Below are positions 17,352-41,906 of a stretch of 41,906 nucleotides of DNA, piece after piece. The notes below the pieces were generated by a model. That model made no database searches. It saw only the letters and a list, made by a program, of their open reading frames with translations, and was not told where the DNA came from. The stretch is from Escherichia phage usur. The stretch lies in sequence record MN850624.1; one strand, 5' to 3'. Within the stretch, counting starts at the first letter, position 1, and the number at the start of each line of letters is the position of its first letter. The position numbers and the translations under genes are program-made.

Positions 17352-18581
17352 TTAGTAACCCTGAGCTTTGGCCTGACGGCGCTGCTCTACCAGTACGGCG
17401 TAGTGCTTGTTGTATTCCGGGGAACCAACAGGATGCGCCTGCTCAAGCCAGCCAAGGTGCTGACGGAATGCCTCGTTTGTCATAACATCACGAGGTGCTT
17501 GACCGCCACCATTAGGCGTCAAACTTTGTCCAGAACGCTGAATCATGTTCCCTTGGGAACCAGCAAACTGGAGGATGGTGTTCACTGCCAGACGCACCTG
17601 ATTAGGGTCGCCGGAGTTCACAGCCGCTACTACTGCATCAACCGTTGCTTTATCAGCGCCAGTGTTGAATGCCTGTACCGCCAGACCCCAACGCTCTTGG
17701 CCGCCAGCCATCTGGTAAACCTGCTGCTCGATTGCAGCATCGCGCTGCTGACCAGCGGCAACCAGTGCGCCGAATTGACCTTTGAGGATGGCTACAGTCT
17801 GAGGGTCGAACTGTGCCAGATAGCGCTCGTTCACCAGAGTAGGGTCACGACGCTCGTAGGCAGAACCGAACGCTGCAAGCAGGTCGATGTTCTGGCCACG
17901 GGCAATGGTGTCCATACCTTGGAACACTGCGCGGCTGGTGTCGTCCGGGAAAATCTGAGCAACCTGCTCTGCGGTCAGCCCACCTTCCTGCGCCGCCAGC
18001 TTATCTGCTGTCAGGTTAGGATTCTGGAACTGCTGCGGAGGCTGGCCCGGCTGCTGCTGCAACTGCTGGAAAGGCTGCTGCTGCTGAGGTGCCTGCTGTT
18101 GCGGTTGCTGCTGCTGAGGCTGCTGCCCATAAGGGTTGAAGCCATACGCAGGGTTGTTCGGTGCTAAGCCCGGCTGCTGTGCCGGAGCCGCTTGGCCCGG
18201 AGGCGTGTAGCCCTGTTGCGGATACCCATTAAGCGGAATAGGTGGTGCCGCAAACGGGCTTTGCGGTTGCGGAGCACCATACGGGTTCTGCTGAGGTACG
18301 GGTGCGTAAGGGCTTGGGTTTCCCTGCTGCTGTTGGGCATACGGGTTGTACTCCTGATTTGGAATCAGGCCCGGCTGTTGACCGAACGGCTGTTGCGGCT
18401 GCGGAGTTGCACCACCTCGCGGCAGTTCAATCGGCGTGCCTAAGCGTCCGAGCGCTGGGTTCTGTACCACCTGTGGGCTTCCACCATAATCATTACCGCT
18501 GTGACCAGAGGGAGCATAGGTCGGGCCAGCGGGTACGTTTTGGGGAGCGGGTGCGGCAGTAGGTTGGTATTCACCAGACAT
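17352..18581 (-). CDS. scaffolding protein (Gln/Pro-rich)
   Basis: 409 aa between portal and capsid; long low-complexity N-terminal half (QQPQQQQPQQQAPQQQQ...). Confidence 0.65.
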   Translation of the reverse strand: MSGEYQPTAAPAPQNVPAGPTYAPSGHSGNDYGGSPQVVQNPALGRLGTPIELPRGGATPQPQQPFGQQPGLIPNQEYNPYAQQQQGNPSPYAPVPQQNPYGAPQPQSPFAAPPIPLNGYPQQGYTPPGQAAPAQQPGLAPNNPAYGFNPYGQQPQQQQPQQQAPQQQQPFQQLQQQPGQPPQQFQNPNLTADKLAAQEGGLTAEQVAQIFPDDTSRAVFQGMDTIARGQNIDLLAAFGSAYERRDPTLVNERYLAQFDPQTVAILKGQFGALVAAGQQRDAAIEQQVYQMAGGQERWGLAVQAFNTGADKATVDAVVAAVNSGDPNQVRLAVNTILQFAGSQGNMIQRSGQSLTPNGGGQAPRDVMTNEAFRQHLGWLEQAHPVGSPEYNKHYAVLVEQRRQAKAQGY

Positions 18582-18593
18582 GTAATCTCCAAA

Positions 18594-20159
18594 TTAAATC
18601 TGAGCGACGTTCGGCGCTACATCGACTGCGCCCGGCTGTACGCCTGCGGCAGCGGCTGCTGCTCTGTCGATTTGCTGACCTTCATTTGCGAGGTCTTGCG
18701 CTGACTTACGATAGTCATCAAGCGCGACGCCGTTGGAAGCGAAGATAACCTCAATGACCTTCTGCGGGTCAATGACGTTGGCAACGCCGTTAATGTTTTG
18801 GACAGCAACCATTGCTGCCTGCGAATCCGAGAGCGCACGAATAAGCGTCTCAGCTTCGATGCTGCGACCGAGGGCATCCAGACCAGCTTCAACTTGAAGC
18901 GTCAGGATATCGCCCACAATGTCAGGTACGGAGGACTCGTCAATCTCTGCGAGCAAGACGTATGCCAGAGGAATCTGGAGGGTCTTTGCCTGCATTGAGT
19001 ACGGGCCACCCAGCCCACGTTCGGCGCTGGTTGCTACCTGCTGCACTTCGGTTGCGGTGGTACGCTCCGAGTCACGGAACTCACCAGTGTACATGAACGC
19101 CTGCGCGAGTCGCTGCACAATCTGGTTAATTTCGTCACGGGCCTGTTGAACTTTCTGGTAATCCCCGACCTCAAGACCAGACAGCGTGGTGCCATTCTGG
19201 AGAGGTACGACCTGCCCGGTCTGCGCGGATTCAATGTCATCGACGTTGCCGCCAGAACCAGTCAGCATCCACAGGACACGCAGCGCCTCTTGCATGTACA
19301 GAGCTGAGTGCTCAGACAGCATCGACAGACGTGCGAAATCCCCAGCGTGGTCTTCGACAATCCCGCGACCATAATGCTCGCCAGACTTCAAAGACCACAC
19401 TGGGAAAATCCAAGGGCAGACTTTTTCAGGGTAGTAATCTTTACCGGGGGTGTAGACACAGCCTTGGTAGTTGCCCACCTGCTGCGTTACTTCATAGCCA
19501 TACAGCCCACTGTCCTTCCGAACTCGGAGGACGCGAGTGTACAGCCACACACGTTTGTTGCCACCACAGCGGAAGCCCTTGGCGTTCAGCATGTCCTGAA
19601 ACGCTTTGTCGAGGGAATCCCACTGGATGCGTTCTTTGACCACGGCGTCCGTAACAACGCCACGACCGTCGCGCTGCACCACGAAGGATTCCAGCCCGTA
19701 CACTCGGTACGTTCCAGTTTCCATATCGCGGTACAGCGCGGCGTTACCAGTGACTGCTTGTTGGGCAATGGTCATTAACAGGTCAGCGTAGCCGCCATTC
19801 TCTTTGGCTTTGTCTACGATGCCCTTTTCAATAGTGATGAGTGCCTGATTAACCTTAGACATTTGCTGCCGCTGTTGGTCAGACACCTTATCGAGTTTCA
19901 GCTTTACGAACCGGGCTGATGCCGGGAACAGGAACTCACCCAGTCGAGCGACGAGGTTGTTAACGAGCAGAGCGCCGACAGATTGGTAGTCACGAGTAAT
20001 CTGCTGGCGGTTCATGTCGTCTACTTCGGCGCGGTCGTATTCACTGACCAGCTTGGCCAACGTGTAACGACTGTACTCACGAGCCTTGGTGACTACGTTA
20101 CTGTCCCGGTACTTTTGCCAGAGCGATTCATAGCTGACGTTCTGCGCGTCATATGCCAT
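18594..20159 (-). CDS. portal (head-tail connector) protein
   Basis: 521 aa, size and position match T7 gp8. Confidence 0.85.
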   Translation of the reverse strand: MAYDAQNVSYESLWQKYRDSNVVTKAREYSRYTLAKLVSEYDRAEVDDMNRQQITRDYQSVGALLVNNLVARLGEFLFPASARFVKLKLDKVSDQQRQQMSKVNQALITIEKGIVDKAKENGGYADLLMTIAQQAVTGNAALYRDMETGTYRVYGLESFVVQRDGRGVVTDAVVKERIQWDSLDKAFQDMLNAKGFRCGGNKRVWLYTRVLRVRKDSGLYGYEVTQQVGNYQGCVYTPGKDYYPEKVCPWIFPVWSLKSGEHYGRGIVEDHAGDFARLSMLSEHSALYMQEALRVLWMLTGSGGNVDDIESAQTGQVVPLQNGTTLSGLEVGDYQKVQQARDEINQIVQRLAQAFMYTGEFRDSERTTATEVQQVATSAERGLGGPYSMQAKTLQIPLAYVLLAEIDESSVPDIVGDILTLQVEAGLDALGRSIEAETLIRALSDSQAAMVAVQNINGVANVIDPQKVIEVIFASNGVALDDYRKSAQDLANEGQQIDRAAAAAAGVQPGAVDVAPNVAQI

Positions 20160-20162
20160 TCG

Positions 20163-20423
20163 TTAACTCCCGATGCCGAGGTTGCTTGCTACACCCGTTC
20201 CGGTGCGGCGGCGTCGGCTCGATAAAGTGTCGGAGGCCGAAGTAACCTGACCACCTGCCTGAATCGTCGGGGTGTTATCGTTCGCCAAATCAGCCTGCAA
20301 GTTCGCATTCAAGGTTTCAGCCTTGACCTGATTCGGGTCGGTCTTAATCGTGTACTGGGGTTTCTGGCTGCCGAGTCCAAAGACCGAGCCAATCCCCTTG
20401 AAAACTTTACCTACGCTACCCAT
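20163..20423 (-). CDS. small virion protein, gp6.7-like (hypothetical)
   Basis: 86 aa Gly/Ser/Thr-rich with a basic C-terminal stretch (SRRRRTG), immediately upstream of the portal gene. Confidence 0.4.
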   Translation of the reverse strand: MGSVGKVFKGIGSVFGLGSQKPQYTIKTDPNQVKAETLNANLQADLANDNTPTIQAGGQVTSASDTLSSRRRRTGTGVASNLGIGS

Positions 20424-20842
20424 TACGGTTTCTCCAAATCAATGAAGCGGTACTCCTGAACGTAAGGCCGCACCATGTGGGAGTAACCGCACCAACGCAC
20501 ACCCTCGGAACGGGCCACGTCTTTGAGTACACGGAGGATGACACGCATCACTCCACGGTTTCTGTACTGGGGCCAGACGTATGAGGCCATAACGACCACC
20601 ATCTCGCCCACATGAATATCGAATAACCTGCCGATGTGAGCAACAGCCATGAGGCTGCCGTCATCGTCAGTGATGTAAACGTCAACACAGCCATTGGCCG
20701 TAGCATCGTACATGCTGTCAACGATTACATCGGGAGATAGGTTCGACCATGGCCGCTCGGCTTGGATGCCCTCGGCCACTGCACGGCGAATGTCAATCGG
20801 CATTGTCGTGTGTGATGTATTTCCCATAGTAGTAGCTTTCAT
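20423..20842 (-). CDS. GNAT-family N-acetyltransferase (putative)
   Basis: 'VWPQYRNRGVMRVILRVLKDVARSEG' matches GNAT motif A (R-x-x-G-x-G/A followed by a helix). No clear RBS for any of the N-terminal Met codons, so the start is uncertain. Confidence 0.45.
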   Translation of the reverse strand: MKATTMGNTSHTTMPIDIRRAVAEGIQAERPWSNLSPDVIVDSMYDATANGCVDVYITDDDGSLMAVAHIGRLFDIHVGEMVVVMASYVWPQYRNRGVMRVILRVLKDVARSEGVRWCGYSHMVRPYVQEYRFIDLEKP

Positions 20843-20843
20843 T

Positions 20844-21110
20844 TCAAATCACTCTTTCGCGTATGAAATCCAGCACGTCCTGCTTACCAGCTTCTCTGTT
20901 GATGAGAGGAAGGTTAGTGTCTATGGTTACTGTCCGGCCAACCTTCTCCCATGTACCGAAGTGCTTTTCCAGTAGAGCTAACTGAGCTTTAGTGAACGTT
21001 ACTCTATCTAATGGAGATTCTTTACCCATACAATCCTCTCTGAGTGGCAGCACCCCCGCCACTGACGGGGCTACCGGTAGCGTGATATCTATCACTATAG
21101 TAGCTTTCAT
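20844..21110 (-). CDS. hypothetical protein (start uncertain)
   Basis: 88 aa ORF starting MKATIVID. The internal Met at 21029 has a strong RBS (AGAGAGGATTGT-ATG) and lies downstream of the promoter-like element, so the real product may be 61 aa. Confidence 0.4.
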   Translation of the reverse strand: MKATIVIDITLPVAPSVAGVLPLREDCMGKESPLDRVTFTKAQLALLEKHFGTWEKVGRTVTIDTNLPLINREAGKQDVLDFIRERVI

Positions 21111-21139
21111 AAATAGTCAAAGAATACAGTACCTTATTA
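21088..21139 (-). promoter_or_regulatory. conserved element A, candidate phage-RNAP promoter (late)
   Basis: Minus strand reads TAAGGTACTGTATTCTTTGACTATTTATGAAAGCTACTATAGTGATAG; the core CTACTATAG resembles the T7/SP6/K11 promoter core CACTATAG. Starts at the RNAP stop codon; followed by a GC stem-loop (GCCCCGTCAGTGGCGGGG) and a strong RBS. Confidence 0.4.
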
Positions 21140-35007: not shown

Positions 35008-35030
35008 CAATATAGTAGCTTTCATAATGC
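35008..35030 (-). promoter_or_regulatory. conserved element B, candidate phage-RNAP promoter (middle genes)
   Basis: Minus strand reads ATGAAAGCTACTATATTGGCC, same 15-nt core as element A; 226-bp intergenic gap at the early/DNA-metabolism boundary. Confidence 0.35.
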
Positions 35031-41197: not shown

Positions 41198-41229
41198 GAA
41201 TTATTTTCACTGAATAGCTCAAATAGTGG

Positions 41230-41330
41230 ATAAGTTACTGTAATCATTAGGAATAAATATTTGATTGAATAGGTTATTGCATAGGATAGATACCGATATC
41301 AGATAGGTTATAAGTTACTGTAATCATTAG
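41230..41330. repeat. two perfect 20-bp direct repeats (TAAGTTACTGTAATCATTAG) 81 bp apart in an AT-rich segment
   Basis: Exact copies at 41230-41249 and 41311-41330; the second copy forms the 5' part of element C. Confidence 0.8.
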
Positions 41331-41358
41331 ATAATTATGAAAGCTACTATAGTGATAT
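41311..41358 (+). promoter_or_regulatory. conserved element C (plus-strand copy of the promoter-like element)
   Basis: Plus strand reads TAAGTTACTGTAATCATTAGATAATTATGAAAGCTACTATAGTGATAT, about 40 of 47 positions identical to element A but in opposite orientation to all genes, pointing into the T-depleted tract. Confidence 0.35.
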
Positions 41359-41374
41359 GTATCGCTAGATACGC

Positions 41375-41860
41375 AGAGCGAGCGCGGCGCAGCCGAAACA
41401 AGCGAGCGCGGAACGGCAACGGATGGAATCCGACAGGATGACAGGCGGCAGCCAGTGAACGCAGTAGGACAGGTGACACAGTAGCAGAGCATGACGCGCA
41501 GAGCTGGCGGCGCAGACAGTAGACCAGCAGACAGGACAGCACCACGGCAGCACCGCCACCACACAGCACCACACGGCGCAGAGCATCACGGCAAAAGAGA
41601 CAGATACCCGCACGACCGAGCGCAGCACGCAGCACCGCACAGCCAGCGCAGAGCGTCCCCATAGGACAGCACCGCACCGCACAGCCAGCAGGACAGCGCA
41701 CAGCACGCCACACGGCAGACGATGAAACGCGACACGCACGAGCTATACCGCACGCAGGCAATCCTCTTGACGCGCCGCGCAGCGCACGCGAGCAAATATC
41801 GCGCACGTCGCGAGGCTAATCCGCGCACACGCTATGGGGGCACGCGCGGTCATTCGGGTC
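41375..41860. other. strand-asymmetric, T-depleted (plus strand) low-complexity tract; candidate genome-terminus region
   Basis: Over ~450 bp the plus strand is almost entirely A/C/G with quasi-repeats (GCGCAGAGC, CAGGACAG, CACAGCCAGC). All three minus-strand frames are open here, as expected for an A-poor strand. Confidence 0.6.
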
Positions 41861-41906
41861 GAGGGAGGCCCACGCACAAATAGTCAATTTTCAAGCCGGG
41901 GTATTG

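Follow-up and report, generated by a model that had tools for sequence, protein, structure and literature searches.

A Rac-like GNAT-fold protein encoded between the RNA polymerase and portal genes of an Escherichia phage

Rac of phiKMV-like phages and the corresponding locus in phage usur

The best described relative of the protein considered here is Rac (gp28) of the Pseudomonas phages LUZ19 and phiKMV, a predicted GNAT whose gene lies directly downstream of the phage RNA polymerase (RNAP) gene and overlaps the first structural gene (Ceyssens et al. 2020, Viruses 12:976; PMC7552054). Rac alone suffices for cleavage of the alpha subunit of P. aeruginosa RNAP at Gln244-Glu245; it shows no proteolytic activity of its own, proteases of the host have been implicated, and in LUZ19 infection the cut removes the alpha C-terminal domain, with alpha disappearing 5-6 min after infection (PMC7552054). 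Expression of Rac is toxic and is accompanied by a rise in lysine acetylation, and the predicted acetyl-CoA pocket, "QYV...AR", is required, a pocket mutant in which the four residues were altered only jointly being inactive (PMC7552054, Figure A3 legend). No acetylated peptide was identified for Rac in that work, nor was direct transfer to a defined substrate demonstrated (PMC7552054). Infection by phage LKA1 leaves RNAP alpha intact, and LIMEzero ORF36 is entered as Rac-like in Table A1 of the same study (PMC7552054); growth of P. putida is unaffected by Rac. The alpha-cleavage phenotype of Rac is genus-specific.

The DNA analysed here (the window; 41,906 nucleotides) comes from Escherichia phage usur, a Bonnellvirus-like member of the Autographiviridae, and all of its major genes lie on the minus strand. 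The region of interest is 92-93.5% identical in nucleotide sequence to those of Kosakonia virus Kc261 and Escherichia phage glasur. The original prediction placed a GNAT-like acetyltransferase between the RNAP and portal genes, and this placement is right, with the addition that the interval also holds two small genes. The minus-strand order begins with the gene for the single-subunit phage RNAP (21137..23569, minus; PF00940, E 5.7e-83), the upstream neighbor of the block, followed by a small gene resembling LUZ19 gene 27 (20844..21029, minus), the ORF with an ATG start that encodes the 139-aa protein (20423..20842, minus), a gene for an 86-aa virion structural protein (20163..20423, minus), the portal or head-tail connector gene (18594..20159, minus; PF12236, E 1.9e-46), and the scaffold and capsid genes. 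LUZ19 shows the identical order of RNAP, gp27, gp28, gp29, portal, scaffold and capsid, the small gene, the GNAT gene, the small virion-protein gene and the portal gene being collinear with LUZ19 gp27-gp30. The N-terminal half of the scaffold protein (409 aa; 17352-18581, minus) is long, of low complexity and rich in Gln and Pro, and the protein matches no Pfam family.

Both small neighbors have counterparts in LUZ19. The 86-aa protein matches phrog_35536 (E 1.2e-48) and phrog_3112 (E 7.7e-12), the latter being the family of LUZ19 gp29, and is the counterpart of LUZ19 gp29 and of T7 gp7.3; a 2026 preprint likewise takes gp34 of the phiKMV-like phage Ar-KM, the equivalent of this protein, as a T7 gp7.3 orthologue. 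The upstream gene was delimited mechanically as an 88-aa ORF reaching 21110, but it probably starts at an internal ATG at 21029 to give 61 aa, which is the annotation used in Escherichia phages Lidtsur and glasur; a Shine-Dalgarno-like GAGAGGA lies upstream of that ATG, and the first 27 codons of the longer ORF would cross a promoter-like motif and 5' leader. Its ORF matches phrog_6575 weakly (E 0.0046, residues 35-87), the family to which LUZ19 gp27 belongs (1.2e-53). This gp27-like ORF ends 1 nt ahead of the ATG of the GNAT gene, whose stop codon in turn overlaps the start of the 86-aa gene as TAATG, and the GNAT gene is translationally coupled to its neighbors. Its dN/dS of 0.08-0.12, obtained against three relatives with 74-94% protein identity, establishes 20423-20842 as a real protein-coding gene under purifying selection.

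In PHROGs the best family for the 139-aa protein is phrog_3986 (E 8.5e-37), which is also that of LUZ19 gp28 (E 2e-66). BLASTP aligns it with LUZ19 gp28 over 109 aa (29% identity, E 1e-9) and with LKA1 ORF39 over 66 aa (38% identity, E 8e-13), and the LIMEzero protein is 55% identical to it. By sequence comparison the 139-aa protein is thus homologous to, as well as collinear with, LUZ19 Rac. The Lidtsur orthologue is already annotated in RefSeq as "GNAT family N-acetyltransferase" and a 95%-identical protein is named "N-acetyltransferase domain-containing" in UniRef, while most close relatives of the gene are still labelled "hypothetical protein".

A compact GNAT fold and its conserved residues

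The protein passes the gathering cutoff of Pfam PF00583 (Acetyltransf_1) marginally, with 22.0 bits against 20.7 and E 2e-4; the same model is matched singly at E<=0.01 by 41 of 52 family members, the best with E 5.3e-9. NCBIfam gave no significant match. Nor did the sequences in the PDB when searched with the single sequence (best E 0.37); there, the family profile was needed, which matches thialysine and spermidine/spermine acetyltransferases by sequence with E of 1.9e-6 to 1e-4. A profile built from 13 close homologues and searched against 1.84 billion cluster representatives recovered no more than 58 proteins at E<=1e-3, almost all of 135-155 aa. A library protein of 3393 aa also gave a match (E 1.6e-24), made up of 31 separate stretches that all fall on profile positions 36-79, but it looks repetitive and not like a member of the family.

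An AlphaFold2 model of the 139-aa protein (mean pLDDT 88.7, pTM 0.82) contains beta1 (2-8), alpha1 (16-29), alpha2 (37-47), beta2 (52-58), beta3 (64-75), beta4 (79-89), alpha3 (98-112), beta5 (117-125) and beta6 (128-135), which reproduces the GNAT core order beta1-alpha1-alpha2-beta2-beta3-beta4-alpha3-beta5-alpha4-beta6(-beta7) apart from alpha4. That helix, which carries motif B, is absent from the model, where beta5 passes directly into beta6 as a hairpin in a block of moderate confidence (pLDDT about 78); the model of T7 gp7 shows the same direct hairpin without alpha4. Beta7 is likewise absent from the model of the 139-aa protein. We consider it almost certain that this is a GNAT fold of the Rac family. 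The original proposal of a GNAT-like protein with motif A in its C-terminal region is therefore borne out by both the profile search and the predicted structure, with the qualifications that the Pfam match is marginal and that the fold is predicted without alpha4.

Motif A spans residues 86-100 at the end of beta4 and in the beta4-alpha3 loop (20543..20587, minus), and reads Y88 V89 x P91 x Y93 R94 x x G97 x M99 R100. The characteristic Q/R-x-x-G-x-G/A pattern is represented by R94-N-R-G97-V-M99, with Met rather than Gly/Ala at the last position. This region aligns with the mutated pocket of LUZ19 Rac such that S87-Y88-V89...M99-R100 keeps the Y, V and R, three of the four mutated residues, the Gln being replaced by Ser. 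Across 53 Rac-like sequences, R94 is found in 51, P91 in 47, Y88 in 44, V89 in 42 and G97 in 34. The most conserved motif of the family lies elsewhere, in the beta3-beta4 turn D-I-H-V-G (residues 75-79; 20606..20620, minus), where G79 is present in all 53 sequences, D75 and H77 in 52 and V78 in 51; the D and H are invariant in the T7 gp7 group too, and the turn aligns with D-P-W-I-G of the spermidine/spermine acetyltransferase (SSAT) and thialysine enzymes. By secondary-structure reasoning this turn appears to be far from the acetyl-CoA cleft. In beta5, S/T121 is found in 52/53 and H122 in 41/53. Residue 133 (20444-20446, minus) is Tyr in 52/53 of the Rac-like sequences and Phe in the clade of the window protein, and the aligned position of T7 gp7 is also Phe; a Tyr at position 131 is missing in some close relatives. 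The Phe at 133 and the missing Tyr131 may bear on catalysis.

The missing alpha4, Met99, Ser87 and Phe133 keep a non-catalytic role in consideration, in which a catalytically inactive GNAT fold would act by binding a host or phage partner. Several features are in line with such a pseudoenzyme: besides the absence of motif B and the Met that ends motif A, G97 is kept in just 34 of the 53 sequences, the Tyr133 of the family is Phe here, the position of the catalytic Glu92 of SSAT is taken by M85, in the T7 gp7 group Asp stands in place of the Arg of motif A and the Gly varies, and the strongest conservation falls on the turn predicted to be distant from the cleft. On the other hand, R94, P91, Y88 and V89 are well conserved, and many active GNATs manage without a dedicated general base. 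The Rac phenotype, moreover, needs the predicted pocket and is accompanied by increased lysine acetylation (PMC7552054). On balance we regard the pseudoenzyme reading as unlikely, and rate the chance that the 139-aa protein is an active acetyltransferase slightly better than even.

The nearest enzymes of known structure by sequence, SSAT and thialysine N-acetyltransferase (8yv7, 2b3u), share with the 139-aa protein the fold, motif A and a D-x-(H/W)-x-G turn; unlike them, the model of the protein has neither alpha4/motif B nor beta7, and the SSAT Glu and Tyr are not kept. In human SSAT1 the catalytic residues are Glu92 and Tyr140. A further reading would make the protein a small-molecule acetyltransferase of the polyamine/thialysine type, changing the polyamine pool while DNA is packaged. 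The catalytic residues, however, are not conserved, E92 aligning with M85 and Y140 falling in the missing alpha4 region, and sequence identity to the SSAT/thialysine enzymes is low (6-16% to GNAT structures in the PDB). As the Rac data also favor protein targets (PMC7552054), we consider such an activity very unlikely.

A candidate promoter and a proposed role at the middle-to-late switch

The gap after the RNAP stop codon contains a candidate phage-RNAP promoter, TTTATGAAAGCTACTATAGTGATAGA (21088..21113, minus). It contains a 17-mer, TATGAAAGCTACTATAG, of which the window has three copies where chance would give 0.05. The first copy (21095-21111, minus) is intergenic, on the coding strand and directly after the RNAP gene, upstream of the GAGAGGA Shine-Dalgarno sequence and the internal ATG of the gp27-like gene; the second (35010-35026, minus) is also intergenic and on the coding strand, after a hairpin and before a Shine-Dalgarno-ATG pair at about 34990; the third (41336-41352, plus) lies on the opposite strand near the right end of the window and points outward. 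We take the 17-mer to resemble promoters of the SP6/T7 class (…ACTATAG). At the post-RNAP position the element is conserved in glasur; in Lidtsur and J8-65 its conservation is weaker.

Transcription from the element at 21088..21113 would cover the gp27-like gene, the GNAT gene, the virion-protein gene and the portal gene. The GNAT gene, at the head of the late operon, is thus probably among the genes that the phage RNAP transcribes; the loss of alpha at 5-6 min in LUZ19 infection is consistent with such timing. Late expression, as originally suggested from gene position, has accordingly become plausible through the repeated SP6/T7-like motif right after the RNAP stop and the coupling of the GNAT gene to its neighbors. 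A scan for sigma-70 promoters and intrinsic terminators across 16-26 kb returned fewer sites than shuffled sequence and is therefore uninformative.

Two further observations concern the promoter-like motif and the right end of the window. At 20825-20844 (minus), the GNAT gene opens with 13 nt, ATGAAAGCTACTA (encoding MKAT), that are identical to part of the motif, which is probably a coincidence or a remnant because the GNAT N-terminus varies among relatives. The last ~550 nt (41350-41906, plus) have a strikingly T-poor plus strand with many GCAC/CAGC-type repeats, and are preceded by two 32-nt direct repeats (41219-41250 and 41299-41330) 80 nt apart; this stretch may mark the end of the genome, an origin or a terminal repeat.

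On these grounds we propose that the 139-aa protein is a Rac-like GNAT, transcribed by the phage RNAP, that acetylates host proteins at the middle-to-late switch, a reading to which we assign a probability of roughly 0.55. Under this proposal the phage RNAP would transcribe the GNAT gene from the promoter just downstream of its own gene, as the second cistron of a coupled set comprising the gp27-like gene, the GNAT gene, the gp7.3-like virion-protein gene and the portal gene. The product would bind acetyl-CoA at the beta4-alpha3 loop through Y88, V89, R94-x-x-G97 and R100, and would acetylate one or more host proteins at the switch, thereby helping to shut down or redirect host functions. Acetyl-CoA binding, enzymatic activity, target and timing are here all inferred, by analogy with Rac.

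It is not assumed that the host function affected is the RNAP alpha subunit, as it is in P. aeruginosa, because the LKA1 homologue does not cause the cut, Rac leaves P. putida growth unchanged, and the exact EEQ/EDE string that surrounds the Pseudomonas cut is missing from the linker of E. coli RpoA (…RQPEVKEEKPEFDP… / …DVRQPEVKEEKPEFDPILL…). Triggering of alpha cleavage in an enterobacterial host is hence an improbable outcome. A different host target would be an immune protein, inactivated in the manner in which the GNAT anti-CRISPR AcrVA5 acts on Cas12a. This phage GNAT precedent is cited in the Rac study (PMC7552054), and the gene considered here is non-core and variable in sequence, as might suit a counter-defence function; we nevertheless consider it extremely unlikely that this is its role.

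The gp7.3/portal slot and T7 gene 7

The original prediction also held that the T7/phiKMV late module does not normally include an acetyltransferase, and it is this part that has to be abandoned: phrog_3986 includes the LUZ19 Rac at the same place, and the family is found at corresponding positions far more widely. The search for related loci with the profile of the 13 close homologues returned 5 close relatives only; the picture of the wider distribution therefore comes from tblastn searches of a phage collection with Rac and with T7 gp7. Rac matched 208 phage records, among them many T7-like Pseudomonas phages in which the match adjoins a gp7.3-like gene labelled "tail assembly" or "host range and adsorption". 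In Ghunavirus 17A, a member of the Studiervirinae with the T7 gene order, the GNAT gene lies between the gp6.7-like and gp7.3-like genes, overlaps the latter and is upstream of the portal gene, and thus fills the slot of T7 gene 7. The window corresponds to the same 6.7 / 7 / 7.3 / 8 arrangement, its GNAT gene being followed by the gp7.3-like gene and then by the portal gene. The 17A slot and the neighbors of the Rac matches indicate that the conserved linkage is to the gp7.3-like and portal genes and not to the RNAP gene. The Rac-like family is a regular occupant of the gp7.3/portal slot in T7/phiKMV-type phages.

T7 gp7 itself (gene 7; 631-1029 of the compared T7 segment) has no Pfam match, and belongs to phrog_2746 ("host range and adsorption protein"). 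It aligns with the 139-aa protein over 69 aa (26% identity, E 1e-5) and with the window family in profile-profile comparison (E 6e-5 to 9e-5), and a high-confidence prediction gives it the same compact GNAT fold. Searching the model of the 139-aa protein against the viral predicted structures of BFVD with Foldseek likewise returned, besides the Lidtsur GNAT, entries named "host specificity protein A" and "host range protein" from ICP3, CR8 and P694. As phrog_2746 is only the second-best family for the 139-aa protein (E 1.1e-11, after phrog_3986), that protein belongs to a sister family of the T7 gp7 family. T7 gp7 is a remote homologue of the 139-aa protein with the same compact fold; judging from its degenerate motif A, the T7 branch might have lost acetyl-CoA binding.

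This relationship raises the possibility that the 139-aa protein is a factor for virion infectivity or "host range" of the T7 gene 7 kind, which would act in assembly. It might, for instance, acetylate or chaperone the product of the adjacent gp7.3-like ejection/wedge gene or a different virion protein, with consequences for adsorption to certain hosts, or infectivity on them, and not for host transcription. The phrog_2746 match and the Foldseek entries point in this direction, as do the persistence of the gp7.3-like gene, and not of the RNAP gene, as the neighbor across architectures, the position and overlap of the GNAT gene in 17A and the TAATG overlap in the window. However, synteny is weak evidence here, the Autographiviridae all being broadly collinear, and the "host range" label of T7 gp7 is an old genetic annotation whose basis could not be traced in the literature searched, where we found only papers on gp7.3 and a single preprint on gp7, which describes it as non-essential. 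We therefore consider a role in infectivity rather unlikely. One specific variant, N-terminal acylation of the gp7.3-like protein, which starts with Met-Gly in the window phage, Lidtsur and T7, was rejected because the LKA1 protein starts MAKK and that of LUZ19 is annotated as Val-Leu-Gly.

It is also conceivable, but distinctly unlikely, that the Rac-like GNATs and T7 gene 7 proteins form one ancient family, spread across the Autographiviridae and tied to the gp7.3-like ejection/wedge gene where the structural module begins. The ancestral job of such a family would have been to modify or escort virion or ejection proteins, with alpha cleavage derived in Phikmvvirus and the enterobacterial branches, given Phe at the Tyr position of the family and the degenerate motif A of T7, perhaps drifting towards a non-catalytic state. 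If true, this would explain the old host-range phenotype.

The acetylation of host proteins by a Rac-like enzyme remains our preferred reading, and its novelty should not be overstated. Earlier work has already described the family, where its genes lie and one biological role, and the gene is an ordinary Rac relative in its usual place, so that its value as a discovery is minor. The practical gain lies in better annotation of Rac-family genes now listed as "hypothetical protein", and in joining three sets of genes, those named Rac, "GNAT family N-acetyltransferase" and the T7 "host range / host specificity protein A", under one compact GNAT fold in the same slot. Nowhere in the literature found are "host range protein" or "host specificity protein A" linked with GNAT; we offer the connection between T7 gene 7 and Rac as a clarification of annotation, of which we found no statement in the literature searched, although it may already have been published elsewhere. 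Should the enterobacterial members be active, E. coli and T7 genetics could reveal the direct substrate of Rac-type enzymes.

Among the described systems, T7 gp7 differs from the 139-aa protein in its degenerate motif A, and the RNAP gene of T7 is early and far off. LKA1 ORF39 (Stubburvirus) occupies the same locus and is closer in its core sequence than LUZ19 Rac, but the annotated ORF is shorter, at 125 aa. From LUZ19 Rac the protein is set apart by its length (139 versus 157 aa, the Rac C-terminal tail being absent), by an overall identity of only 29%, by Ser in place of Gln as the first pocket residue, and by an enterobacterial host instead of P. aeruginosa. With the same Rac it nevertheless shares membership of phrog_3986, the compact GNAT core, the Y, V and R of the pocket, and a gene that follows those for the RNAP and the gp27-like protein and abuts the first structural gene.
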